The notes under the pieces: generated by a model
What the model was told of the DNA's origin: nothing
What the model saw: the letters and a program-made list of their open reading frames with translations, nothing else
The model's database searches: none
Shown here: piece by piece, positions 1 to 29,886 of the stretch
How the letters are laid out: every line of letters starts with the position of its first letter
Numbering within the stretch: the first letter of the stretch is position 1
Assembly (NCBI RefSeq): GCF_000011125.1
Contig: NC_000854.2
Location: forward strand, 780,001-812,000
Source: Aeropyrum pernix K1
GTDB lineage: Archaea; Thermoproteota; Thermoprotei_A; Sulfolobales; Acidilobaceae
Direction: 5' to 3'
DNA length: 32,000 nt
Translations under genes and position numbers: made by a program

Positions 1-457
1 GGTAGACTCTGGAGGCGGCGAAACCGTAGAAGTACGTGTCCGGCGTGGTCACGGTGATGGGAGCAGTATATAGGAAAGTAGGCTGTACCGTCTCACCATG
101 ATCTTCAGAAACTCCCAAAGTCTCTATAGAGGTCTTAAGCCTGTCAACCATGGCTTTTATTAGGGAGTGCATAGGCTCAACAAGGAACCCCCGGGCCGCA
201 ATAGGCCTTTTACTGGCAAAGCTAGCCAGTAAGGGTGCCATGAACACCTCTGTTTTCCCGGCCCCAGTAGGGGCCCCAAGAAAGACAACACCTCCTGGAC
301 TTTCATATGCTATCCTGCAAATCTCCTCGGCGGCCTTAGCCTGGCTGTTTAGTAGAGCTTCGTTAACAGCCTTCTTAGCACCTTCCACATGGATCCGTCT
401 CTTCACCATCTTCAAGATTGTCTTTTTGAGGACGTTAGGCTGGCATCCATATTCCAT
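1..457 (-). CDS. cas3: Cas3' helicase subunit (type I-A), N-terminal part; the gene runs off the left edge of the window
   Basis: It is absent from the ORF track because it is edge-truncated. My translation of the minus strand from the ATG at 457..455 gives MEYGCQPNVLKKTILKMVKRRIHVEG...ESPGGVVFLGAPTGAGKTEVFMAPLL...APITVTTPDTYFYGF, with no stop down to nt 1. GAPTGAGKTE is an SF2 helicase Walker A (motif I). The gene sits directly after cas5 in a csa5-cas7-cas5 cassette. The plus-strand track ORF 150..569 is its antisense shadow. An alternative start is the ATG at 409. Confidence 0.85.
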   Translation of the reverse strand, partial: MEYGCQPNVLKKTILKMVKRRIHVEGAKKAVNEALLNSQAKAAEEICRIAYESPGGVVFLGAPTGAGKTEVFMAPLLASFASKRPIAARGFLVEPMHSLIKAMVDRLKTSIETLGVSEDHGETVQPTFLYTAPITVTTPDTYFYGFAASRVY

Positions 458-1349
458 AGCCGGACACCTCGTGGAAGCTCTCGTGCACAGCTACATTAAT
501 CCTCCCGTCGATCCCCTCAACGCTGCATCCGTATACCGAGCCTTCAACTTCTATCTCCGAATAGACTAGAACGTAGCCGCGTTCTACAGCCTCTTTTTTC
601 ACTGGCATTGCTATAGCAATGGCCTCGCTTCTCCGAGTTCTGCCAGTACGTCCTGCACGAGCTGGGGCATATACGACGGTGAAGCTCCCTCCAACAGCAC
701 TGTCTAAAGCTACGGGAGTATTGACCGACTTAGACCTAAACTCGGCCAGCTGGCATCTCCCAACAGGGCGTGCGGATACTAGTGATTCGCTGTCTCCTAG
801 ACGATCTATGTACCATAGGGCCTTCTCAATTCTGTTAGCATTATCTCTGCCCCGAGCGACAAATACAGCATACACTGGATTATAAGGTGTTATATAGCCT
901 CGTAATAAGGCATCACTTATTCTACTTAACTCGTCTAAAACTCTATTACCCCTATTCTCCCTTGTCGAGCCCTCTTCTGAATCCGGTTCTAAAACTTTCC
1001 GGAGCCTCCGGAGCACAACCTCCCACTCTACCCCCAGTATTTGGCCTGGCTTTGATAGTGGTGCAGCCGCCTTGACAATCCTGCCAGTCTTCTTTATACA
1101 CGACTGGCTCGCTATCCCGCCGGTGCATGAGCCCAGTAGTGATGCACCCCTCATGAGACCCCCTAGAAGTGTTGAAGGCAGTGGAAGGGGTAGGGGTGAT
1201 GCCACCTGATAAGACTCAGGATTTTTTACAGAAAAAGCTGGGGTGGCTAGCTCGGCCACTACCACCCAGTCTCCAGGCCTCACGGTATCCGATAAGGATC
1301 CGTTGCCGTCAGTTATTGACATACTAGCTCTACGCTTCCTTCCCACCAT
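435..1349 (-). CDS. cas5: Cas5 (type I-A, Cas5a)
   Basis: 304-aa ORF. The N-terminal segment ...YQVASPLPLPLPSTLLGGLMRGASL resembles the Cas5 P-x-PPS-T-hydrophobic-G-hydrophobic motif, and a later YIDRLGDSESLV is Cas5-like. Synteny is between cas7 and cas3'. A start at the ATG at 1322 (MSITDG), 7 nt after the cas7 stop, is equally plausible. Confidence 0.75.
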   Translation of the reverse strand: MVGRKRRASMSITDGNGSLSDTVRPGDWVVVAELATPAFSVKNPESYQVASPLPLPLPSTLLGGLMRGASLLGSCTGGIASQSCIKKTGRIVKAAAPLSKPGQILGVEWEVVLRRLRKVLEPDSEEGSTRENRGNRVLDELSRISDALLRGYITPYNPVYAVFVARGRDNANRIEKALWYIDRLGDSESLVSARPVGRCQLAEFRSKSVNTPVALDSAVGGSFTVVYAPARAGRTGRTRRSEAIAIAMPVKKEAVERGYVLVYSEIEVEGSVYGCSVEGIDGRINVAVHESFHEVSGYGIWMPA

Positions 1350-2373
1350 AACCTCCCACCAGCTCGGAGGCGTGATCTGCAGCTTCCTTGAGTAGGGTTC
1401 CCAGGTCCCTATACTCCTTAATCTTCAGCTTGTCGGACCCATATCCACCACAGATGCCCTCAGGATAGCAGTGTAGAATACAGCTAGCACCGTCACCGAG
1501 AGACTCGGTTACACTCTTGAGTAGACTAGCTGTCTTCTCAACATAGTTCTCATACGAACCGTGGACAGCGTTGGGAACTGGTTTGTTACACACAGCCACA
1601 ACAAGCTCTTCGACCATAGCTATGGGAAGGGCTCTGGCTTGTTTACTAGCCGCTCCTCCTAGGAGGTAGGCAAGGGCTAATAGAGAGGCTCTCGCTCTCC
1701 TCATCCTCTCCTCTTCATCGCAAGCACTTCCACCCTCTTCGGATTCGTAGAGTGGCCTGCACAGGTATTCAAGGTCGAAAGAGGCTGAAATACCGTAGAG
1801 TCCGGAGGAGTACTCCTGCTTGAACACCATCATTTCTGTTGCGCCAGTCTCCTGGCTATTTGACTCTTCCCCAGCTCTGCGGCGCTGTAACGGGTCTACC
1901 CTATTATGGGTTACCGAGAACTTCTCTATGTTCTCCAATACCTCGTTGTTAAGAACTGGTATTGCGAAGCTAAACCTGGCAAGGCTATCCCTTTTCAACT
2001 GCCTTCCCCTTTCTGCTATAAGGAAGCCATGCAGGTCGTTACAGAAGTCCTTTATAGCTTCAGACTCTCTTGTCGCCAGCCTCCTCTCACCTTCTAGATT
2101 TGTATCAACATTGTAACCCCGCAGTCCTATACCTCTCTTGCACAGCTCGTTCAACATTGATCCTCCTAGAGCCTGATATACCTGAGCCGCATAGTACGCG
2201 TGCCAGTGCTTCAGGGAGTTCCCTGTTAGAACAGGAACTTCGTAAACTTTTGAAGAATCGCCGCAGCAGTAGACTCTAGCTCGGGCGTGCATACTGTAGT
2301 TCCCAGCTGTCCCGTGTCCTGTGAGGACTGCCACGTTGACTCTGACCCTGCCCGCAACCCTAACATACGCCAT
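1330..2373 (-). CDS. cas7: Cas7 / Csa2 (type I-A Cascade backbone subunit)
   Basis: 347-aa ORF. The N-terminus MAYVRVAGRVRVNVAVLTGHGTAGNY...VPVLTGNSLKHWH matches the Csa2/DevR family pattern (isgrv..n.aal.g.g..gN and isGeSlKH). Size and position between csa5 and cas5 fit. Confidence 0.85.
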   Translation of the reverse strand: MAYVRVAGRVRVNVAVLTGHGTAGNYSMHARARVYCCGDSSKVYEVPVLTGNSLKHWHAYYAAQVYQALGGSMLNELCKRGIGLRGYNVDTNLEGERRLATRESEAIKDFCNDLHGFLIAERGRQLKRDSLARFSFAIPVLNNEVLENIEKFSVTHNRVDPLQRRRAGEESNSQETGATEMMVFKQEYSSGLYGISASFDLEYLCRPLYESEEGGSACDEEERMRRARASLLALAYLLGGAASKQARALPIAMVEELVVAVCNKPVPNAVHGSYENYVEKTASLLKSVTESLGDGASCILHCYPEGICGGYGSDKLKIKEYRDLGTLLKEAADHASELVGGYGGKEA

Positions 2374-2380
2374 GCCTATG

Positions 2381-2776
2381 TCACCCCCATAGAATCTCCC
2401 TAACGCTGAGGGCGTGATAGTCAGGAGCTAGTGATAAGGCTGCAAGCCGCCTGACTTCCCGGTTCAGTAGCTTCTCGCCTCCTTCCGCCTCAACACACCT
2501 AAGATATCGGAATAACTTCTCGAGGTTGGCTGCCATATACTTTAGTCTTTTTAACGCCTCTTCCACTCTTTCCCCTTCTCCCTTGTTATAGAAAGACTCG
2601 AGATCCTTGTAGACCTTGACAGCAAGTCTAGCTAACAACGCTAGCTGTTCCTCGTAGGAAGAGGGCCTAGACGCTAGAGTGTCGGTTATATCGTATGCCT
2701 CCTCCGCTAAGATAACTATCCTAGCAGCCCTCGCAAGATCTTCCACAGGATCCCGCTGTCCATCCACTCTCTCCAT
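2381..2776 (-). CDS. csa5: Csa5 (type I-A small subunit, Cas11-like), called mainly on synteny
   Basis: The maximal ORF is 2381..2932 (183 aa, GTG start). Its first ~50 codons are AT-rich and contain a T5 tract hairpin (2916..2930) and TATA-like boxes (2847..2855, 2871..2877). The first in-frame ATG after these is at 2776 (MERVDGQRDP..., 131 aa), a typical Csa5 size. The protein is predicted helical, and the slot between csa3 and cas7 is where I-A loci carry csa5. I recognise no diagnostic motif by eye. Confidence 0.55.
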   Translation of the reverse strand: MERVDGQRDPVEDLARAARIVILAEEAYDITDTLASRPSSYEEQLALLARLAVKVYKDLESFYNKGEGERVEEALKRLKYMAANLEKLFRYLRCVEAEGGEKLLNREVRRLAALSLAPDYHALSVREILWG

Positions 2777-2943
2777 ACATCTTTCTAGAACCCCAATGCT
2801 GCTTACGCTCTGATAGCTGGGGGAAGCCAAAGCATGCCAGCCTCCAGTATAAATAATGCTGATTAATACCATATAAACCCTTAATGTGTCACTAATACTA
2901 TTCCATGTTTTATGGGAAAAAGAATTTTTCACTTGCTTTAGTG

Positions 2944-3639
2944 TTATATGCCTACTAACATGTAGCCTAAATCGGTGAGACTATAGAGCTTCCCTCTCCC
3001 CCTCACTTCTGAAGATATTAACTTCTTCGACTCAAGCTTTCGGAGAAGCCTGTCAGCAAGAGTTCTAGAGACCTGTAAAGATCTCGCAATAGACTTTACT
3101 CTAGCCCTCCCTAGGCCTGCCAAGGTTTCCACTACCAAGAGTTCCTTATAATCTATTGTAGCTAGGGGCGGCACGCTCTCGAGTTGTAAGGGCTGCAGCA
3201 TCTCAGGACGTATGTTAAGGTCTATACCCTCAGCCTCGGACTCTAAATCAACTCTTAGCATCTCCACTTTTATTCCGCGGAACACACCCACTGTTTGGAG
3301 CGCCATTGCTGTTAGAAGGGCAGAGACTACTAGCCATCTTAACCCTCCAGAGGCTAGAATGTATGCGCTGGCAGGCGCAGCCTCCTCGACAACCCTCCTC
3401 ATCTTGGCAACTCCTCTGGGTATACCATTAGAGGGGTCTAGCCATACGTCTCTCGTTTCCACATGAAGATCTCCATAAGCGTCTATAATCATGTTCTTGA
3501 GCTTCTCTACGGCGTCAACTGCCTCCCTTGTTCTGGGCTCGCTGTTAACTATTATAACGAGGCTCCCAGGCTCCAGGCCGATAGATGCTACTGCACGCCA
3601 GGGCCTGGAGTAGTTAAACCCCACTGTTGCCAGTATCAC
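2944..3639 (-). CDS. csa3: Csa3, CARF-domain plus winged-HTH CRISPR-associated transcriptional regulator
   Basis: The N-terminus VILATVGFNYSRP...VIIVNSEP and ...ILASGGLRWLV resemble a CARF Rossmann-like fold with the GG(M/L)R motif. The C-terminus LLVVETLAGLGRARVKSIARSLQVSRTLADRLLRKLESKKLISSEVRGRGKLYSLTDLG is a winged HTH. The GTG at 3639..3637 overlaps the cas4 TGA (3638..3636) as GTGA, which suggests translational coupling. The track ORF extends upstream to 3702. Confidence 0.85.
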   Translation of the reverse strand: MILATVGFNYSRPWRAVASIGLEPGSLVIIVNSEPRTREAVDAVEKLKNMIIDAYGDLHVETRDVWLDPSNGIPRGVAKMRRVVEEAAPASAYILASGGLRWLVVSALLTAMALQTVGVFRGIKVEMLRVDLESEAEGIDLNIRPEMLQPLQLESVPPLATIDYKELLVVETLAGLGRARVKSIARSLQVSRTLADRLLRKLESKKLISSEVRGRGKLYSLTDLGYMLVGI

Positions 3640-4220
3640 CTTTCTGAACCTCTCTCTGCTACCCAAGGCTGGCACACCCTCCTGAACCTGCATGCCACAC
3701 ACTTTCTACCTGGCTTGGGAGGAGGTTCTAGACCATCGTCCAGGGTTTTGTTCATATCGTCAGCTAGCCTGATCACATCACGTCTCAGGCTAGGGGACAT
3801 TTTAACAACGTAAGTTTTAGAATCCTCCAGCGAAACGATAGCTAGGTAGTCAACAGAATATCCTCTGGTCTCTTCGAGGGCTAGTGCATAGGCAGCGGCC
3901 TGAAAGATAACATGGCGACCCCTAGTGTGAAGCCATCTATTAGACCTTACACTTAGCTTCGCCTCGACGACTATAATGCCCAAACTCCCCTCGACAACTA
4001 CCCCGTCTGCAACACCCTGCAGCCCTAGACGCTTGCTCCTCAAGGGTACAGCCCATTCCTCCTTCACAATTCTGAAGCCAGAGGATCTTAGGATCCCCCT
4101 AACATGGTCCACGCTATAAATCTCGCGAGAGAGATTCATAGGCTCTGTAGGCCTGTATGAAGGCCTAAGAACCTCCATATAATAAGCGACACGCGGACAG
4201 TACGCATACTCCTTCAGCAT
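3636..4220 (-). CDS. cas4: Cas4 (RecB-like nuclease with 4Fe-4S cysteines)
   Basis: Motifs seen are YAYCPRVAYY (N-terminal Cys), GVADGVVVE...IVVEAKLS (D..E.K RecB motif), QAAAYALAL (QhxxY) and the C-terminal CVACRFRRVC. The track ORF runs to 4301 but overlaps cas2 by 65 nt. The ATG at 4220 lies 16 nt after the cas2 stop and precedes the conserved Cys, so I prefer it. Confidence 0.9.
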   Translation of the reverse strand: MLKEYAYCPRVAYYMEVLRPSYRPTEPMNLSREIYSVDHVRGILRSSGFRIVKEEWAVPLRSKRLGLQGVADGVVVEGSLGIIVVEAKLSVRSNRWLHTRGRHVIFQAAAYALALEETRGYSVDYLAIVSLEDSKTYVVKMSPSLRRDVIRLADDMNKTLDDGLEPPPKPGRKCVACRFRRVCQPWVAERGSER

Positions 4221-4236
4221 AGACACCGGCCTCAAA

Positions 4237-4515
4237 CTACACCACCACAACTCTCTTCCCATCCTCAAGACTACCCCCAAGACCGTAGGCATCCCTAACA
4301 CTGTCGCCCGGAATAACCATCACCATGATCTTGTCTTTCCCACTGTCCGCTAGCCTCTGGAGAGCTCGGTACGCCTCCTTGGCAAGACTCCGTCCTCCCT
4401 TCGCGATGTACACGCTCTTCTGTACCCTAGCGAATCCCATCTGCAGAAGTTTCTGTGCGGCCTTGAGGCGTTTAGAATCATTGCTTATATCGTAGGCTAT
4501 TAAAACGTACACCAA
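4237..4515 (-). CDS. cas2: Cas2
   Basis: 92 aa. MVYVLIAYDISNDSKRLKAAQKLLQMGFARVQKSVYI is the classic Cas2 beta1-alpha1 start with the catalytic Asp in YDI. It lies between cas1 and cas4. Confidence 0.92.
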   Translation of the reverse strand: MVYVLIAYDISNDSKRLKAAQKLLQMGFARVQKSVYIAKGGRSLAKEAYRALQRLADSGKDKIMVMVIPGDSVRDAYGLGGSLEDGKRVVVV

Positions 4516-4518
4516 GGA

Positions 4519-5499
4519 TCACAGCCCCAGCCTAACAGCTGAGAACCCTCCGGAGCCTCGGAAAGCCTCTGCAAGCCATCGAGCCTGAACCATTATGGCG
4601 TCTTCGAGCCTAATCCTTCTACCTAACCCTCTGACAGCAGCTTTCATAGAAAGCGAGCTGGCAACTGCCTTCGCAACCTCTTTTCTAGACTTATAGTCTA
4701 GCCTTCCAGCTTCTAGCTTGAGATACATCCTCCCAGCCTTCAGAGCAAGAATCCTGTCGACAATGGGGGCTCGGAAGGGTTCTATAGCGTCCAGAGTTAG
4801 GCTAGGCTTCCCACTCTTCTCGGAGTGGAAGACGCCGAGGTATGGATCAAGGCCGACGAGAAGGAGGCTCTTCTCGACAATGCTATAGAGCATGCCGTAG
4901 CCGTAGTTGAGGGCGGCGTTGAAGGGGTCAAGGGCACCTCGGTCACGGCCGCTGAACCCGAGTCTGCCGGGAAGTATCTCGGCTATGCACTGCCAGTATC
5001 TCCTCGACGCTCTCGCCTCAATTGATAGGAGCTTGTCTCTAAACCCGGGCCCATCCTCGTCTGCTATGCGCAATGGCTCTCCAGATAGTAGCTCAACCTC
5101 GTATCCGGCCTCCCTTAGCCTCTCATCTGCTCTCTGTCTTGCAATATACTTTAGAGTCTGGCCCTGGTTGTAGATCTTCGCCGATACCAGCTCTGCTGCT
5201 ATGAGCCTTCTAAGCCTCTCGTTGGCTGAAAACTGTCCAATCCTAGTTGCCACGGTCTTATTAATAATGGGTGGGTAGAGCCTCGCCACGGGGCTGCCAT
5301 CCCAGTCTAGAAAGACGAGATCTATACCCATTTTTGCAGCCGCTCGTACGGCCGCGCTAGAAATAGAGACCCTGCTACTGGATATTATTACACGTTCCAC
5401 GCTACTCTCCACTACAACCTTTTTTCCTGCTTTAGTCTCCACAACCAACGCACCTCTAGCAACCCTTATCCTCGAACCGGGCTCTGCAACCACCATCAT
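4519..5499 (-). CDS. cas1: Cas1 integrase
   Basis: Motifs seen are ALNYGYGMLYS, DPYLGVFHS and PSLTLDAIEPFRAPIVDR (Cas1 metal-binding region). The track ORF extends to 5541. The ATG at 5499..5497 (MMVVAEPGSRIRV) overlaps the csa1 TGA by 1 nt (TGATG), so it is the likelier start. Confidence 0.93.
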   Translation of the reverse strand: MMVVAEPGSRIRVARGALVVETKAGKKVVVESSVERVIISSSRVSISSAAVRAAAKMGIDLVFLDWDGSPVARLYPPIINKTVATRIGQFSANERLRRLIAAELVSAKIYNQGQTLKYIARQRADERLREAGYEVELLSGEPLRIADEDGPGFRDKLLSIEARASRRYWQCIAEILPGRLGFSGRDRGALDPFNAALNYGYGMLYSIVEKSLLLVGLDPYLGVFHSEKSGKPSLTLDAIEPFRAPIVDRILALKAGRMYLKLEAGRLDYKSRKEVAKAVASSLSMKAAVRGLGRRIRLEDAIMVQARWLAEAFRGSGGFSAVRLGL

Positions 5500-6317
5500 C
5501 AAACACCGCACACCTCCCGGAATACACATCCTGGAGGACATGCCTCCGGCAATCCCGGATCGCTCCTGTACTCTATAATTCTCGCTACCGCGTCACGCCT
5601 CTCAAGGAACCTTGTCCTGAGATGATCATCGACCCTCACTAGCCTCCAAACAATCTTCAACCCATCGTTAACCCTAAGGCCGACAACAACTCCGTAGTCC
5701 ACGGGGTTTCCAGTCCATGCCTCGACAGCAAGAGCATATCCAGCTATAGCTAGCTCCTTCCTTGCAACCCATCTATCACCATGTCCAGCGAGCACAAGGT
5801 CAACCGGCATGATGCCAACAAGTAGATCCGGCCTAACATAGTCGCTGAGACCCACAGGGCCTCCTGGCACGTTTGGCTCGACAGCAACGGGAATTCCATC
5901 AACCCTTGCAGCCGCCGAAAACTCCACGGCCTTCTCAAAAACAGCATTCATAACGCGGATCTCGTTACCTCGTGCTCTAACCCTTCTCAACAAGTAATTA
6001 AACATCCTGTAAGCATCGCCAACTCTGTGAGCCTTGAAGGGGAGCAGGAAAGCCTCGTGCACTAGAGCCCCAAGCCTGAGAAGCCCCCCATTAACCCTCG
6101 TATTTAGGACCCTCCTCAGATAAGTATCCCTGCCAACGGGGCAAACCCCTGTAACATCGCTGAGGGTAGGCCTGGCCGCGTACCTAGGACCTACGACATT
6201 CCACTTCCACCCCCTTAACTCGGCGTATACCCCATCACCAGCAGAGGATCTCACCAAGTCCCACAAGCCTCGGGGGAACAAACACAACACCTCAAAGTTA
6301 TTATACAAGCAGTACAT
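5499..6317 (-). CDS. csa1: Csa1 (Cas4-like, type I-A adaptation-associated RecB-family protein)
   Basis: 272 aa. Features seen are ELRGWKWN, CPVGRDTYLRR and the C-terminal cysteine cluster ACPPGCVFREVCGV. It is the first gene of a csa1-cas1-cas2-cas4 cassette next to the leader, as in Sulfolobales I-A loci. Confidence 0.75.
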   Translation of the reverse strand: MYCLYNNFEVLCLFPRGLWDLVRSSAGDGVYAELRGWKWNVVGPRYAARPTLSDVTGVCPVGRDTYLRRVLNTRVNGGLLRLGALVHEAFLLPFKAHRVGDAYRMFNYLLRRVRARGNEIRVMNAVFEKAVEFSAAARVDGIPVAVEPNVPGGPVGLSDYVRPDLLVGIMPVDLVLAGHGDRWVARKELAIAGYALAVEAWTGNPVDYGVVVGLRVNDGLKIVWRLVRVDDHLRTRFLERRDAVARIIEYRSDPGLPEACPPGCVFREVCGV

Positions 6318-6657
6318 CTATTTATCCGAATGATGTATCTATTGACACATAAGATGTGAAAAATGACACATTAACCACTTATAAGCTAAAATATGAATGG
6401 CAAGACCTTGATAATAAACTCAAGACCAGCAATCTAAACAGATGGAAAAAGTACCTATGTAAAATAGTCCATCAAAAATAAAAGCACACATAATAACGCT
6501 TAATGCGAGCAAACTACATATAAATATAAATATCCGGTAGCCTCTCTGAAGAAGAACAAAGCCGAACCGAGGGTAAAATCTATTGGATGATCGGAAAAGG
6601 AAAAATTTATATAAGAACCTAACACTAAATAAACTAAACATTGAATCGATTAAACAG
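6318..6657 (+). promoter_or_regulatory. CRISPR leader (AT-rich) with a putative pre-crRNA promoter; also the divergent upstream region of csa1
   Basis: This 340-nt strongly AT-rich stretch lies between csa1 and the first repeat. The TATA-like box TTTATATAA at 6606..6614 sits about 45 nt upstream of repeat 1. The repeat 3' end ATAGAAAG resembles the archaeal 8-nt crRNA 5' handle (ATTGAAAG type), which supports plus-strand transcription away from this leader. Confidence 0.7.
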
Positions 6658-9355
6658 CATATCCCTAAAGGGAATAGAAAGGTAGACGCCTGCACGGTTC
6701 AGCAAATACACGGCATCCTGGCATATCCCTAAAGGGAATAGAAAGAACTGGAAGAGGGGGAGTAAGAGAGCGTTCTGGGGCTAGCATATCCCTAAAGGGA
6801 ATAGAAAGGTAGACCTGGCCGTCGAGGTGTATCTCCATGCAGCCCGCATATCCCTAAAGGGAATAGAAAGTTAGAAGCCTATTAGAGCAGGGCGTGGACG
6901 ATGGCTCGATGCATATCCCTAAAGGGAATAGAAAGATAACCTCGGTGCCAACGCGTTCGCCGTGAATGCTGGCGCATATCCCTAAAGGGAATAGAAAGGA
7001 GAACCTGTAGCGCTCGAGCCTCGCAGCCGCCCTAACGGCGCATATCCCTAAAGGGAATAGAAAGAAGAGAATTTGCGCCGATGAGGCGGGCGAGGGGTGA
7101 CGGTGCATATCCCTAAAGGGAATAGAAAGCTTCAGGTCTGCAATCGCCGCCCTGAGGTTCTGAATATCGCATATCCCTAAAGGGAATAGAAAGACCCGCC
7201 GGCGGCCTCCTCGGCGGCATAGGCTGCACAACCGGCATATCCCTAAAGGGAATAGAAAGGGGAGACTGCTAATCCGGAGGAGGCCCCGTGTGCAAAAGCA
7301 TATCCCTAAAGGGAATAGAAAGTCCTAACCGGCGGCCTCCGTATTATCCGGGGCGGCGGGCATATCCCTAAAGGGAATAGAAAGCTGGTTATAGTGAGGC
7401 CCTCCGGAGTCTCTATCACAACCGCATATCCCTAAAGGGAATAGAAAGCTTTACGCTGCCTTTCTGGCGGGGGTCCTGAGCCAGGGCATATCCCTAAAGG
7501 GAATAGAAAGTTACGGCATAGGGCTAGACCCTGCTATGAGCGGGGCACCGACGCATATCCCTAAAGGGAATAGAAAGCTTACCACCACCATTGGAGCCAC
7601 CCCAGAGCTGCCTGGGCATATCCCTAAAGGGAATAGAAAGGATTGCATAGGCGATATACCCGAATCCCAGGTCGGTAAGCATATCCCTAAAGGGAATAGA
7701 AAGAGGAGGCGGAAGTACGAGATAGTTGTTGGGCCCGGAGATGCCGGCTAGCATATCCCTAAAGGGAATAGAAAGTCCTGGACCTCCGCCTACCCCGCGT
7801 CCTAGTCTCCCGGGGCATATCCCTAAAGGGAATAGAAAGTGGACCCACAAGAAGCTGGTGAAGAGCATTATGGAGTCAAGCATATCCCTAAAGGGAATAG
7901 AAAGCCACCGCCTGAGCTCCCTCTCCAGCTCGGGGTCCACCTGGGCATATCCCTAAAGGGAATAGAAAGACCACGACGGTCTCCTCGCCCACGCCGCAGT
8001 AGTAGTCCGTGGCATATCCCTAAAGGGAATAGAAAGTGAAGAAGCAGCCTAGGCCTATACTAGTCTATGAGCTCTCGAGGGCATATCCCTAAAGGGAATA
8101 GAAAGTTATGAGGTGTGGGAGCGTGGATGGTGAGGTTGTTATAAAGTGCATATCCCTAAAGGGAATAGAAAGAGTGGGCAAGCGGATAACATCTCTATAG
8201 AGAGGTCTACGGCATATCCCTAAAGGGAATAGAAAGCCACCTGGCGAGCCGCCCACCACCCTGCGGCATACGCAGCGCCTGGGCATATCCCTAAAGGGAA
8301 TAGAAAGTCGAGCACTTCCAGGCGGCTGGCCTTGCTAGGCTTGAGAACGGCAGGCATATCCCTAAAGGGAATAGAAAGGCGGTGGTTGTGCTAGCCTTCG
8401 CATTCGCCCTCTCGGGCCCCGCATATCCCTAAAGGGAATAGAAAGCTCTTTCTCGAGCACCAGCCTGCCTTCGGAGTCCATAGCGCATATCCCTAAAGGG
8501 AATAGAAAGTTCACAGTCCACGCCTCGCAGGTCTACCATCTAGTCGATATTGCATATCCCTAAAGGGAATAGAAAGGCCGCGCTGAACGCCTACTTGCCG
8601 CCTGGCTTCGAGGCAGCATATCCCTAAAGGGAATAGAAAGATCACAAAAACGTGAACGCGCCCGCCCGGCTACAGCTTCTGCATATCCCTAAAGGGAATA
8701 GAAAGCCTCACGTACAGCCACATGGTCCCCAGGCCAGCCAGGACGGCATATCCCTAAAGGGAATAGAAAGTTACGGGTGGTGTAACTAGAAATAACTATG
8801 AAGATAGCATATCCCTAAAGGGAATAGAAAGGAAGCAACTCAGAAGAGCTTCCCTCTTGACTCTAAAGCCCTTGCATATCCCTAAAGGGAATAGAAAGAT
8901 GTGCATGGAGTGGGCATCAGAATTAATGAGATAATCAAGGCATATCCCTAAAGGGAATAGAAAGCTCGGTTACGGCGTTAGCCCCGCCGTTTGCATTGAC
9001 AAACGCATATCCCTAAAGGGAATAGAAAGGTTGCCCTAGCACCCCTGCTGGCCCTGCTCCTAGTACTGCATATCCCTAAAGGGAATAGAAAGTACAACTT
9101 CCTGAGGTGGCTCGCCGCCTACGGCCCCGTGCATATCCCTAAAGGGAATAGAAAGTGCAGCCAGCTTTACAACGCTGATCCTCTTCTCACTCCTAAGCAT
9201 ATCCCTAAAGGGAATAGAAAGGTATATAATGTCGGGGGCTATCCCGCTGCTCATATCCACGGCATATCCCTAAAGGGAATAGAAAGCTGGAGCGCCGGGA
9301 GCTCAAGAGGGACGGCAGGCGCAGGGCGAGGCATATCCCTAAAGGGAATAGAAAG
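6658..9355 (+). CRISPR. CRISPR array, 42 x 25-nt repeat GCATATCCCTAAAGGGAATAGAAAG, 41 unique spacers
   Basis: I located every repeat by hand. The first is at 6658..6682 and the last at 9331..9355. All 42 copies are identical, with no degenerate terminal repeat. Spacer lengths run 36-47 nt (for example 6683..6720 is 38 nt and 7704..7750 is 47 nt). The array is adjacent to type I-A cas genes and the AT-rich leader. Confidence 0.99.
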
Positions 9356-27491: not shown

Positions 27492-27713
27492 GTGGGGAGC
27501 CTATTGATCGGGGAGAACGCGGTCTACGCTATACTGTCTGGGGCTATAGCGCTGATACTGTCTCTCAAGCTTGTATCATGGTGGATAGAGACTGCCAGTA
27601 GGAGAAGGCTTGTCGGCAGAGACATGAACAAGTATGATAAGCCCGAGGTTGCAGAGGCTGGCGGGATATGGGCCGTCGTGGCGGGCGCTTTTGGCCTGCT
27701 GATGCTGGAGGCG
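27492..27713 (+). pseudogene. N-terminal ~74-codon fragment of a GT4-family UDP-GlcNAc-1-P transferase (AglH/WecA-like) gene
   Basis: The segment ...ILSLKLVSWWIETASRRRLVGRDMNKYDKPEVAEAGGIWAVVAGAFGLLMLEA matches the conserved N-terminal G-x-D-x-N-K...(V)PE-x-GG region of archaeal AglH-type enzymes, which are normally about 300+ aa. Recognisable similarity ends near 27713, and the frame closes at 27785 after unrelated residues. Confidence 0.6.
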
Positions 27714-27964
27714 CTATTGTGGTTAACCCGGGTAGCGTGGGGCAGCCACGGGACGGGGATCCCAGGGCGTCATACACCGTCATAGACGCCGAGAAGAGCT
27801 CTATAGAGCTGTATAGGGTCAAATATGACGTTGACAAGATCATAGGGAAGCTACGTGCTCTAGGGATCTCAAGCCCCCATATAATGGAGCCTCAGACAGC
27901 GGGGGAGACCCGTTACTCCCGCGCTCCCACGCCACCCGAGGCTGCCAGTATGGAGCCAGCATAG
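27707..27964 (+). pseudogene. C-terminal fragment of a metallophosphoesterase (YfcE/MJ0936-like, PF12850-type) gene
   Basis: In a different frame from the preceding fragment, the sequence reads GGAIVVNPGSVGQPRDGDPRASYTVIDAEKSSIELYRVKYDVDKIIGKL. This is the characteristic C-terminal NPGSVGQPRDGDPRA.Y...YD block of these phosphoesterases. All N-terminal metal-binding motifs (DxH, GDxxDR, GNHD) are absent upstream. Confidence 0.6.
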
Positions 27965-28098
27965 AACGCCAGGGCCACAGCGGACACTAGGTTGGAGGCT
28001 GCGGAGGTCAGGGGGATCAGACGCCGTTCACCCAACCGTGCCTTCATGTAACAAATTATAGCAGGTTGTGTCGGGCACGGCTGGGTTCATCACGGTCT

Positions 28099-28150
28099 CC
28101 CCGGGGCCGCCTACGGAAGCCCCTGGGGGCTTCCCTCGGGAACCCCGGGG
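28099..28150. repeat. GC-rich nested palindrome immediately upstream of the low-GC island
   Basis: CCCCGGGG (28099..28106) and CCCCGGGG (28143..28150) are mutually complementary. They enclose a perfect 9-bp hairpin, GGAAGCCCC-tg-GGGGCTTCC (28115..28134). Confidence 0.6.
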
Positions 28151-28207
28151 TCACCGGGTTAGGTTTATAAACTTAAAGCCTTAAAGTTTTGTTGGGGATT
28201 CCCCAAT

Positions 28208-29323
28208 ATGAGCTACATAACGCTTACACTACCATTTAATGTTGGAGGTAGCGTAGCTGGGGACTTGTTCAGTACTGCATGGTTGTTTAAGACTGCTACT
28301 CATAGAATGCTCAGTTTAGCCAAGCAAACACCCATACTACCTGCTACTGACATTGGCTGGAAAAACACCTTTAGGAAGGCAATCTATGAGGTGATACCTA
28401 ATCGTAGGTATGTTGATGGAGTTATCACGCTTGTACGTGGAATTTACGAGTCTTGCAGACAACTGGGAGTTGGCTTCAAAGAGGTAGAGCTTGGAGATTG
28501 GCTGATGTTTCAGCAGGCTGAGAAGGAATATCCAGTAAGGAACATTACCCTAAAGGATGACTACAGCTTCTACATAACAACTATAGGCTACAATGGAGAA
28601 AAGGATAGAATAGTTGTTAAGCCCACAATACCCAAGAACTACAAGGTTTTGCTCGACAAGATTCTCGAAGAGAGACAGAAACATACAGCTAGAATAGTTA
28701 TCAAGGATTATGGTGTTAGGAAAAACAGGCTGTGGGTTCATGGAGAGATACAGCTTACAATACCCATAGACTTCTACTACAAGCATATGACTAGATATAG
28801 GAGAAACTATGGGAAACTCTACGGCGGTGTAGATGTTAACGTTGATAGAGCCAACCTAGCAGTAGTTGATAGGTATGGTAGGCTAAGGCATGTAAAGACT
28901 TTCTGGTTTGAGGAAGCATCAAGAAAGGGATGTAGAAGTAGGAGGGCAAGAAGCATTATAGGGATGACTGTTCACGATATGCTTAAATACGCCTATCATC
29001 ATGGAGTCAAAACATTATTCCTAGAGAACCCAGATGTACTCGGGAAACTAAAACTGCTTTGGATAAGAAATGGTAAGAGACTACATAGGAACTACAACTG
29101 GAGAGTCTCTGTATTCAGGAGTAGAATAATAGAAATGATAACTATGAAAACACCACTATATGCTATTAGGGTAGAATATGTAGACCCAAGGAGGACGACG
29201 CATTCTGAAGAACACGATAAGATAATGAAGAGATACGGCTTAGATAGGCATTCAACATCAGCCTACCTAATAGCCCTACGCGGTATAGAAAGATACAGTT
29301 CGATACAGAAAGTTACAGCTTAG
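28208..29323 (+). CDS. TnpB/OrfB-like RuvC-fold protein lacking the zinc-finger cysteines (candidate RNA-guided nuclease family member)
   Basis: 371 aa. The motifs, in order, are YGGVD(209)VNVDRANLAVVDRYG (RuvC-I-like G-x-D-hydrophobic-G/N), KTLFLE(273)NPDVLGKL (RuvC-II-like hydrophobic-E-x-L), NYNWRVSVFRSRIIEMITMKTPLYAIRVEYVDPRRTTH (like the w.f..l...l.YKa...G..v..VdP.yTSq block) and GLD(346)RHSTSAYLIALRG (RuvC-III-like DRD.NAA.NIa). Only SEEHDKIMKRYG lies between the last two blocks, with no Cys, where TnpB carries CxxC...CxxC. A TATA-like GGTTTATAAAC sits at about 28162..28172. Confidence 0.6.
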   Translation: MSYITLTLPFNVGGSVAGDLFSTAWLFKTATHRMLSLAKQTPILPATDIGWKNTFRKAIYEVIPNRRYVDGVITLVRGIYESCRQLGVGFKEVELGDWLMFQQAEKEYPVRNITLKDDYSFYITTIGYNGEKDRIVVKPTIPKNYKVLLDKILEERQKHTARIVIKDYGVRKNRLWVHGEIQLTIPIDFYYKHMTRYRRNYGKLYGGVDVNVDRANLAVVDRYGRLRHVKTFWFEEASRKGCRSRRARSIIGMTVHDMLKYAYHHGVKTLFLENPDVLGKLKLLWIRNGKRLHRNYNWRVSVFRSRIIEMITMKTPLYAIRVEYVDPRRTTHSEEHDKIMKRYGLDRHSTSAYLIALRGIERYSSIQKVTA

Positions 29324-29886
29324 TGTTTCTGACCCATCGACTCGGCGGGGAGGAGGCGGGGTGTTAGGCCTAACACTATCGACAGTATTAGGAGTGCCGT
29401 GCCCGCGGCCCACAGCCACCATGAAATCGGGGAGCCAGAGCTGCGGGCTAGGATCAAAACCCCCGAGATAAGGAAGAGCATGCTGAGAAGGAAGACCAGG
29501 ACAGCCACCAGGCTAAGGCTACTGGCCCCCAGCCGTGCTCCCCCCGCAAAGGTGGCAGAGAAGACGAGGTAGGCTATAGCTGCGGTTCTTACGGCTCTCG
29601 CGAGGAAGAAGCCGGAGAGGAGGGCGAACCCGAGGGACGCGCCCGAGCCCCTAGCTATAACCCCTACGCTAGAGCCGGCTAGGGATACCATAAACGCGAA
29701 GAAAAGTATAGCTAAGCTGGCGAGGTTAAAGAGCTTGGAGCTCAGGAGCCCGAACTCGGAGGATGCTACAATAACCACGGCGTACACGACGCCGACAGCA
29801 GCTAGGGCCACTAGGCACAATGCTGCCGTTAAAGAGGCCAGCCACACCCTCTCCACAACACTACACCCGGCGCAGCCTCCAAACAT
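29320..29886 (-). CDS. Hypothetical polytopic membrane protein
   Basis: 188 aa with about 5-6 hydrophobic segments rich in A/L/V/G/S. I recognise no family. It is convergent with the TnpB-like ORF and overlaps it by 4 nt. Confidence 0.5.
   Translation of the reverse strand: MFGGCAGCSVVERVWLASLTAALCLVALAAVGVVYAVVIVASSEFGLLSSKLFNLASLAILFFAFMVSLAGSSVGVIARGSGASLGFALLSGFFLARAVRTAAIAYLVFSATFAGGARLGASSLSLVAVLVFLLSMLFLISGVLILARSSGSPISWWLWAAGTALLILSIVLGLTPRLLPAESMGQKH

Follow-up and report, generated by a model that had tools for sequence, protein, structure and literature searches.

The window considered here, a 32,000-nucleotide (nt) stretch of the Aeropyrum pernix K1 genome (contig NC_000854.2, positions 780,001 to 812,000; coordinates below are those of the window), raises the question of what is encoded in a sharply bounded island of low G+C content near its right end. 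Across 28200-29400 the G+C content is 0.40-0.43, against 0.55-0.60 on both sides. The island contains an intact open reading frame (ORF) at 28208-29323 on the + strand, which starts with ATG, encodes 371 amino acids (aa) and corresponds to APE_1276, a hypothetical protein in database annotation; its G+C content is 0.41, compared with 0.58 in the remaining window. An initial annotation of this DNA had correctly noted the drop in G+C and had proposed that a zinc-finger-less TnpB/Cas12-like RuvC protein is encoded here, in a feature starting at 28161. That start is misplaced, as it falls in the promoter/TATA region, outside the ORF and out of frame. The coding sequence is one part of an insertion element with IS200/IS605 affinities, intact and without TnpA, that arrived by horizontal transfer and occupies 28023-29335. 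Its other part is a previously unnoticed structured RNA gene at 28023-28163 on the - strand, and this is our main new result. The two genes appear to stand back to back across a shared AT-rich promoter region.

APE_1276 had no match in Pfam, where PF01385 (OrfB_IS605) was absent even at E <= 10, and none in a sequence search of the PDB. The NCBIfam model TIGR01766 ('TnpB-related') gave a sub-threshold match of 13.8 bits (cut-off 32, E = 0.061). At E <= 1e-3 we collected 749 homologs, for which the precomputed Pfam label is PF27229 'SSO2105_N'. The best 120 of the 749, one of which is APE_1276 itself, are 66-82% identical to it, are mostly 361-371 aa long and come from host groups that include Desulfurococcales, Vulcanisaeta and Njordarchaeia. 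Because an exhaustive search of 1.8 billion cluster representatives yielded only 202 clusters at 50% identity, we regard the SSO2105_N family as a compact clade. Some of its distant members are already named 'IS605 OrfB family transposase' in IMG.

Conserved residues were examined in an alignment of 31 full-length members with identities down to about 20%, for none of which PF01385 is among the families listed (E <= 1). The motifs G-x-D209-x-N-x-D-R-x-N, E273, N297-(R/W)-K and V-N-P327-x-x-T-S are kept, as is the RuvC-III motif G-L-D346-(R/K)-H-x-A-S-A-Y-x-I-A-x-R-G, and their order as read from the alignment is that of TnpB. The motifs and residue numbers quoted in the initial annotation (D209 in GGVDVNVDR, E273 in TLFLENPD, P327 in YVDPRRTTH and D346 in GLDRHSTSAY) proved exact. 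E273 is invariant and D209 is at least 90% conserved; position 346 is Asp in 27 of the 31 members and Asn in three, and the member P0135 has no aligned Asp.

The absence of a zinc ribbon is a property of the whole family. The only Cys residues of APE_1276 are 83 and 242, and the stretch from P327 to D346 is free of Cys, as the first description of the protein implied. The corresponding linker is 18-20 residues long with 0-1 Cys in all 31 divergent members, and the CxxC...CxxC zinc ribbon between RuvC-II and RuvC-III is missing in every one of them. In APE_1276 the site is taken by a helix of ~12 residues. It had been anticipated that the protein would match PF01385 and not PF07282 (TNB); the first half of this expectation failed, and the second held in that no PF07282 match was significant, with weak sub-threshold matches in 5 of the 31 members. 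Zinc-finger loss has been reported in some TnpB branches, for example clade RIIIr-4 (Altae-Tran et al. 2023, PMC10691335), so the loss alone is not unprecedented. RIIIr-4 TnpB proteins likewise lack the C4 zinc finger between RuvC-II and RuvC-III, but their RuvC-III site is rearranged, whereas the A. pernix family keeps the canonical position.

An AlphaFold2 model of APE_1276 computed from the 31-member alignment has a predicted local distance difference test score (pLDDT) of 90.5 and a predicted template modelling score (pTM) of 0.81. Its order of secondary structure, beta1-beta2-beta3-alpha-beta4-alpha...beta5-alpha, is RNase H/RuvC-like. The triad residues occupy the positions expected for such a fold: D209 and E273 sit at the ends of beta-1 and beta-4, respectively, and D346 precedes the last helix. 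When the model was compared with the PDB using Foldseek, the top 22 matches were all Cas12f or Cas12k (E 1e-10 to 2e-7, probability 1.0), with query-normalized TM-scores (TMq) of 0.28-0.61 (0.5-0.61 for the best chains) and alignments of 335-513 columns (440-490 in the best chains), which take in the whole protein; bacterial RuvC followed at E 2e-4. In BFVD the matches were of the TnpB type and included the ISCaje1 'transposase', an IS607-family protein and a Cas fragment, so that the structural comparison proposed at the outset came out positive in both databases. The family profile matches Cas12j/Cas12X at E 6e-4 and Cas12f at 2e-3 to 3e-2. These alignments place vvlEdl on VAMENI and glDrHtaSAYlIA on riDaDvNAAiNIA, so that E273 coincides with the Glu of RuvC-II in Cas12 and D346 with the Asp of RuvC-III. 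From the model and the alignments together we conclude that APE_1276 is a predicted RuvC nuclease of the TnpB/Cas12f type, with WED-REC-RuvC architecture and a D209-E273-D346 triad. The zinc-finger-less TnpB/Cas12-like assignment, with the protein as a candidate miniature RNA-guided nuclease, is thus borne out by fold matches at E 1e-10 and by family-wide motifs.

The protein resembles TnpB of IS200/IS605 and IS1341 elements (e.g., ISDra2) in length (~360-400 aa), in its WED/REC and split-RuvC domains, in the D-E-D triad and in the motifs E-D/N-L, N-R/W-K, V-N/D-P-x-x-TS and D-x-H/D-x-A/S-A-x-x-IA. It differs in that the family has neither a Pfam OrfB_IS605 match nor a zinc ribbon. Since the former is lacking, profile-based TnpB censuses can miss whole branches such as this one. 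Cas12f (Cas14) and Cas12k provide the best whole-protein structural matches and the best profile matches across RuvC-II to RuvC-III, yet they are 400-530 aa or more, compared with 363-371 aa here, and the present proteins have no zinc-finger/TNB domain and are carried on a mobile element. No CRISPR array or adaptation genes adjoin the nuclease gene in the window, where the only array is of type I-A and lies 19 kb away, and no array stands beside the homologs at the loci examined; because there is no adjacent array the element is not a Cas12 CRISPR system.

Two observations concern relatives of the nuclease. At loci L274/L276, which encode the 33%-identical protein P0144, the start codon of the nuclease gene is overlapped by a 55-aa ORF read in the same direction, which may be an extra system component in the P0144 clade; a gene with a LAGLIDADG_3 domain lies ~1.5 kb downstream of the nuclease gene. 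At L273, 1.2 kb downstream of an SSO2105-family gene, a 219-aa fragment (4808-5467, - strand) with a weak PF07282 (Cas12f1-like TNB) match is the remnant of a conventional TnpB.

If the protein is a TnpB relative, where is its RNA? The initial annotation expected an omega-RNA at the 3' end of the gene, an expectation defeated by the fact that just 12 nt of the element follow the stop codon. Its second search interval, upstream at 28080-28210, does contain an RNA, though on the opposite strand. The 330 nt upstream of the ORF, aligned from 20 loci, hold a conserved non-coding block of ~185 nt with two hairpins whose stems differ between clades yet stay complementary. Folding favors the minus strand over the plus strand by 7-32 kcal/mol in 20 of 20 loci; the A. 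pernix RNA has a minimum free energy of -76.6 kcal/mol, with z = -5.9 for the minus strand vs z = -3.3 for the plus strand. The minus-strand pair table contains ~126 G.U cells against ~9 A.C cells, and because G.U pairs become A.C mismatches on the opposite strand, this excess points to the minus strand as the one that is read.

Covariation supports the same structure. From a minus-strand alignment of 24 sequences (A4), RNAalifold derives 29 pairs, 19 of them with compensatory double changes. Paired cells make up 94.7% of A4, compared with 38-47% in controls with partners shifted by 1-3 columns; the shifted controls have covariation scores of 0.08-0.13, whereas A4 scores 0.533, a value that none of 500 shuffles reached. 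R1, a covariance model built from A4, finds the RNA beside 27 of 27 gene copies examined, in the same relative position and on the same strand, at 89-135 bits, with a score of 122 bits at window 28023-28163. The G+C content of the RNA exceeds that of the ORF in all 20 loci, which is expected for a structural RNA in a thermophile, and RNA subtypes follow protein clades. At a locus whose protein is only 28% identical, R1 has a significant, if weak, match of 23.8 bits (E 1e-5) that lies upstream, on the opposite strand, after a TATA box, and in a 33%-identical member a TATA box followed by hairpins with GAUGA/UGA motifs occupies the corresponding position. The arrangement of RNA and divergent ORF thus appears, from these sequences, to reach distant family members.

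Read 5' to 3' on the minus strand, the RNA consists of ~8 nt, GGUGACC, hairpin P2, GGAG-ACCGU-GAUGA-A, hairpin P1 and (G)UGA-ACGGY, after which unrelated flank begins. The parts lie in the window as follows.

28023-28163, - strand: structured non-coding RNA of ~140 nt, candidate omega-RNA-like scaffold (R1, covariation, folding)
28099-28150, - strand: long hairpin P2, whose conserved internal loop, CGAG / GUAGG, has K-turn-like G.A potential (Rfam match, covariation)
28087-28098, - strand: single-stranded linker GGAG-ACCGU-GAUGA with box-C-like GUGAUGA (invariant or near-invariant columns of A4)
28030-28086, - strand: hairpin P1, stem of 10-13 bp, loop variable and dispensable (covariation, loop deletions)
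28023-28031, - strand: 3'-terminal GUGA-ACGGC, which combines a box-D-like UGA with the 3' strand of the closing helix; the unrelated flank that adjoins it is the putative guide

Compensatory changes occur at 10 of 15 pairs of the P2 helix and 8 of 10 pairs of the P1 helix, and the P2 internal loop is GAGA / GAG in other clades. In 99% of cells the linker segment ACCGU forms pairs with the ACGGY at the 3' terminus, and L001 shows one compensatory change, ACCGC/GCGGU. In an alternative pairing, ACCG joins the 5' YGGU in about 92% of cells, with zero compensatory changes. Because of this competing structure, we favor the terminal closing helix but do not take it as proven. The P1 loop, the only internal region that varies, was considered as an internal, bridge-RNA-like guide and rejected; copies of one clade inserted at different sites have conserved P1 loops, and L012 and L023 have lost most of theirs.

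Part of this RNA has a probable counterpart in Rfam. All 73 nt of the model RF02814 Sso133 (Sulfolobus sRNA133) are matched by P2, with no counterpart on the plus strand; the score is 37.3 bits (gathering score 44) at E = 4e-5, and the match includes the internal-loop signature CGA...GGGAG / CUCCCGUAG. It recurs at P2 in L025 (34.4 bits) and L007 (33.7 bits), both also below 44. P2 is a likely homolog of Sso133. The model covers P2 only, about half of the conserved RNA, and the Rfam data give no function or protein partner. With the ACCGU/ACGGY helix closing them, the motifs GUGAUGA and (G)UGA recall a box C/D kink-turn (K-turn), and this is offered as a resemblance only. Archaeal box C/D sRNAs are ~50-70 nt long and have, besides the C (RUGAUGA) and D (CUGA) boxes, C'/D' boxes and guides of 10-12 nt; in the present RNA a long hairpin separates the two motifs, C'/D' boxes are absent, and Rfam searches of the RNA region gave no match to box C/D families.

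Between the RNA and the ORF lies a short region with the following features.

28164-28207, unstranded: divergent promoter region, conserved in 20 of 20 aligned loci
28164-28171, unstranded: TATA-like box TTTATAAA, conserved in the aligned loci
28180-28189, unstranded: second box CTTAAAGTTT, in most loci a palindromic CTTATAAG (alignment)
28194-28204, unstranded: perfect palindrome GGGGATTCCCC, 3 nt before the ATG, kept in essentially every copy

From spacing alone, we tentatively assign a promoter to each strand; the distances would fit a leaderless nuclease mRNA and an RNA that starts just upstream of GGUGACC. The palindrome GGGGATTCCCC could be an operator, a 5' hairpin or a nuclease binding site. 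Scans for bacterial promoters and terminators found nothing above shuffled background, using bacterial models that are inapplicable to archaea.

Comparison of 20-24 loci shows where the element ends. The upstream limit of conservation is abrupt and falls at (R)CCGTTCACC (window 28023/28024); downstream, conservation stops at C(T/A)GCC(C), 12-45 nt past the stop codon, at window 29335. On these grounds the unit is 28023-29335.

28023-29335, unstranded: whole mobile unit of 1313 bp (1.28-1.35 kb elsewhere), from the conservation limits
29324-29335, + strand: right end TGTTTCTGACCC, from conservation, with the terminal GCCC-type motif

At the left end, the last paired base of the RNA closing helix lies 0-1 nt from the point at which similarity between loci ceases, and beyond it the flanks share zero similarity in 24 loci and one orphan RNA copy. 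Neither terminal inverted repeats (TIRs) nor a target-site duplication (TSD) was found in the loci compared. At the right end, a 6-bp inverted repeat, TTTCTG (29326-29331) and CAGAAA (29306-29311, inside the ORF), spans the stop codon; from its position it may be a subterminal hairpin of the end that bears the GCCC-type motif, itself a possible transposon-adjacent motif (TAM). This repeat is conserved in clade 1, and other clades have analogous short repeats. The stop codon of APE_1276 overlaps the end of a convergent, membrane-like host ORF at 29320-29886 (- strand), the abutting gene that the initial annotation had described. That ORF extends 16 nt into the right end of the element, which supplies its last few codons and stop, and its native C-terminus was therefore apparently replaced by the insertion.

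ISC1217 (ISNCY) was entertained as an identity for the element and ruled out by the Cas12f-like fold and the lack of a TSD; we know ISC1217 here by its description in the literature, where it is grouped with IS4/Tn5 DDE transposases (Majorek et al. 2014).

Several lines of evidence show that the unit moves. Gene neighborhoods differ completely between hosts, and a Vulcanisaeta copy lies between two fragments of an amidohydrolase (Amidohydro_3) gene. When the fragments are rejoined the frame is open, but ~190 residues between GWIVG and RHRIEH are missing; the event was thus an insertion plus a deletion and is uninformative as to TSD or TAM, and it was discarded as a source of exact ends. Copy number per genome is low, usually one. 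One metagenome-assembled genome (MAG), however, carries two gene copies (L010, L011) together with an orphan RNA copy, and R1 finds two RNA copies in all without an adjacent nuclease ORF.

L023 ~5017-5312, + strand: mini-element in which the reverse-complemented right end is followed by a promoter-like segment and then by the whole RNA, down to ...ACGGT
L010 ~5937 to the locus end, + strand: mini-element with the right end reverse-complemented, the last ORF codons, a promoter-like segment and the RNA as far as it reaches before the locus ends

Both begin with the reverse complement of the clade-specific right end, GGGCTGTTTC in L023 and GGGCAGAAATGTTAGATTATAGC... in L010. These ORF-less units of ~250-300 bp preserve the two termini together with the RNA gene and are analogous to non-autonomous IS200/IS605 derivatives; each has a full copy 1.5-2.5 kb away.

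These observations bear on whether the locus is instead a domesticated single-copy host gene or a decaying, inactive insertion-sequence relic. The single copy in the 32-kb window, the absence of a transposase gene and the usual number of one copy per genome would suit such an origin. Against it, the A. pernix gene has pairwise ratios of nonsynonymous to synonymous substitution (dN/dS) of 0.07-0.14 to nine homologs, at saturated dS, which indicates that the ORF is under purifying selection; the best 120 homologs are mostly intact and remain 66-82% identical across Desulfurococcales, Vulcanisaeta and Njordarchaeia. The ORF also has a G+C content of 36-46% in every host, with host flanks ranging from 34% to 58%. 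Because this composition holds whatever the host, the A. pernix low-G+C island reflects the element's own composition in an unusually GC-rich host. With the varied contexts, the copy in a disrupted gene and the orphan mini-copies added, this alternative is very improbable. The initial annotation had weighed a decaying IS1341-type relic, which the dN/dS values and the 749 homologs refute, and domestication, for which the varied contexts, the copy in a broken gene, the multi-copy MAG and the mini-derivatives leave no support; its other option, a compact and previously uncharacterised TnpB-derived lineage, agrees with the fold and the conserved motifs.

We also sought relatives and empty sites elsewhere. 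No empty site in A. pernix was recovered by way of the neighboring genes: the 135-aa neighbor occurs only on short Logan contigs, and the 467-aa neighbor is not on record. Metagenome and viral contigs scanned for the 14-nt linker GGAGACCGTGATGA gave, among the matches listed, chance matches from unrelated environments; the sole locus that passed a stricter filter was rejected by the covariance model, and a protein-pattern scan of viral contigs found no relatives. Five of the six Logan contigs of A. pernix runs (L027-L031) end at window 29302, ~35 nt inside the right end, a hint either of further copies of the terminal ~35 nt in the A. pernix genome, perhaps as part of a mini-element, or of a polymorphism at this site. 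Transfer RNA (tRNA) genes were seen near two copies, with two at 1466-1759 of L007 (a Desulfurococcus MAG), ~560-850 bp upstream of the element's RNA end, and one near the Vulcanisaeta copy at L001 7887-7960.

In the main rival explanation the upstream hairpins are mainly cis-acting single-stranded DNA (ssDNA) transposon ends for a Y1 TnpA supplied in trans, or a regulatory small RNA of the nuclease gene, with no flank-derived 3' guide. The element does have IS200/IS605-like traits (no TIR, no TSD, subterminal end hairpins), DNA hairpins on the top strand would show strand asymmetry too, and the ends are exactly what mini-elements keep; the restriction of Sso133 to P2, the promoter region common to RNA and ORF and the conserved palindrome before the ATG also agree with it. 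But a structure of 140 nt, with at least 29 pairs, invariant linkers and K-turn-like loops, goes far beyond known TnpA-binding hairpins. A suitably spaced TATA box lies upstream of it on the minus strand in all loci, its G+C content is raised as in structural RNAs of thermophiles, tnpA is next to none of the copies examined, and the Rfam match is poorly explained. We regard this explanation as unlikely, though not negligibly so. It is compatible with a scaffold function of the RNA, because an end hairpin and an omega-RNA coexist in canonical elements.

The reading that we favor, and consider reasonably probable, is that the RNA is an omega-RNA-like scaffold, that read-through supplies a guide derived from the flank, and that the ORF is inverted with respect to canonical IS200/IS605 elements. 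The nuclease would bind the ~140-nt RNA as its scaffold. Transcription would pass the element boundary, so that the RNA of each copy would gain a 3' extension from its own flank. The flank is the proposed source of the guide because it is the only copy-specific sequence, the P1 loop being conserved within clades and deletable. With the 3' extension as guide, the ribonucleoprotein would cut an unoccupied or excised version of its own site, at a target beside the motif found at the other end, C(T/A)GCC(C), or (G)GGC(A/T)G on the RNA-sense strand. Cutting would favor retention or spread of the element, as with canonical TnpB, for which retention and spread through cutting have been shown.

Several points weigh against this model. 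Strand-asymmetric, G.T-tolerant hairpins could also be ssDNA end structures of the IS200/IS605 type. Binding of the RNA by the protein, a guide gained by read-through, a TAM and the cutting of DNA are steps that we infer. The closing helix has just 4-5 bp, is almost invariant and is rivalled by the 5' alternative pairing, and as the Sso133 model spans P2 only, the stable RNA in vivo may fall short of the whole scaffold. The flank beside the putative TAM shows a weak preference for A and nothing more; no empty site was recovered that would define the exact ends or a TAM, and the sole gene disruption found, that in Vulcanisaeta, carries the ~190-aa deletion as well. The element has no transposase gene to account for its movement. 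Finally, Asn replaces D346 in 3 of the 31 divergent members.

The last point also bears on a third possibility, that the RNA guides or scaffolds a complex whose role is not cleavage, such as repression of transcription, as in the TnpB-derived TldR proteins, or RNA targeting, with specificity given by the flank or another segment. A TnpB/Cas12 fold with a co-evolving RNA would suit this, and exapted TnpBs are documented (PMC10691335). However, the catalytic triad is retained in most members, with E273 invariant; the neighborhoods are not conserved, unlike those of exapted TnpBs with fixed partner genes, and the behavior of a mobile element is clear. We judge a non-cleavage role improbable.

On the favored reading, how would the system relate to those already described? 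It would share with TnpB omega-RNA a structured RNA of ~130-170 nt whose 3' end lies at one transposon end, where the flank could provide a guide, and it shares with IS200/IS605-IS1341 elements the absence of TIRs and TSDs and the existence of RNA-bearing miniature derivatives. The canonical omega-RNA overlaps the 3' end of tnpB on the same strand, whereas here the RNA is upstream, on the opposite strand and behind its own TATA box, and contains K-turn-like and box C/D-like motifs. The right end of the present element, moreover, lies 12-45 nt after the stop codon (12 in A. pernix), and there is no tnpA in the loci examined. When the element is read from its GCCC end to its RNA end, the RNA would hold the position and polarity that it has in IS605/IS1341, and it is the nuclease gene that would be inverted, with its own promoter and without overlap. 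IscB/IsrB systems are alike in having the RNA gene upstream of the nuclease ORF in the non-coding end of the element. In IscB, however, the RNA is on the ORF strand with a 5' guide, in contrast to the opposite strand and the only possible guide position, the 3' end, here; the folds also differ, IscB/Cas9 as opposed to TnpB/Cas12.

We extend the model to the family with less assurance, at rather below an even chance. On this tentative view the SSO2105_N family, with ~750 homologs in hyperthermophilic Thermoproteota and Njordarchaeia, would be an undescribed OMEGA-type system made up of a zinc-finger-less nuclease of 361-371 aa, among the smallest of the TnpB-like kind, and a separately promoted, divergent K-turn guide RNA, the guide being read out of the transposon end; L7Ae, recruited by the K-turns, would be a possible third component, and RNA-only mini-elements would be mobilised or protected in trans by this nuclease. 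Such a system would be modular and thermostable by nature, with two genes that do not overlap. In the searchable literature, whose coverage leaves out subscription journals, we found no description of the SSO2105_N family, of SSO2105 or Sso133 in such a role, or of a divergent omega-RNA.

If the RNA does guide the protein, this would be a new architecture among transposon-encoded RNA-guided nucleases, characterized by an inverted ORF, a non-overlapping RNA with its own promoter, the lack of a zinc finger and archaeal K-turn-like motifs. Because the RNA gene is separate, RNA and protein could then be engineered without mutual constraint, and the orphan Rfam family Sso133 would gain a probable protein partner and role. 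The hosts grow at 80-100 C, and 361-371 aa lies at the lower size limit of the superfamily; small and thermophilic, such proteins are attractive for thermostable or delivery-limited genome-editing tools. The element would also offer a system in which to ask how mobile units without TnpA, and the RNA-only units derived from them, survive and pass from one archaeal order to another.

The surroundings of the element in A. pernix add a few observations. Its neighbors are ordinary metabolic genes, for a beta-eliminating lyase, QRPTase and RibD_C, and unannotated membrane-like ORFs. The initial annotation reported no tnpA nearby, and in agreement with it neither tnpA nor a serine recombinase gene was found in the window or in the other loci examined. 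It had also placed a type I-A CRISPR locus 19 kb away, and such a locus is indeed present at window 435-9170, ~19 kb upstream of the element, with an array of 42 repeats (GCATATCCCTAAAGGGAATAGAAAG) at 6656-~9170 and its genes at 435-6317. No link between this locus and the element was found, and their nearness appears incidental. The associated genes are as follows.

5499-6317, - strand: csa1, type I-A locus
4519-5541, - strand: cas1, type I-A locus
3636-4301, - strand: cas4, type I-A locus
2944-3702, - strand: csa3, type I-A locus
1330-2373, - strand: csa2/cas7, type I-A locus

Just left of the element, two + strand ORFs, 27492-27785 and 27668-27964, overlap in different frames. The second, which has no Pfam match at 1e-3, ends in a metallophosphoesterase-like GSVGQPRDGDPRASY segment, and the pair may be a frameshifted or truncated gene.

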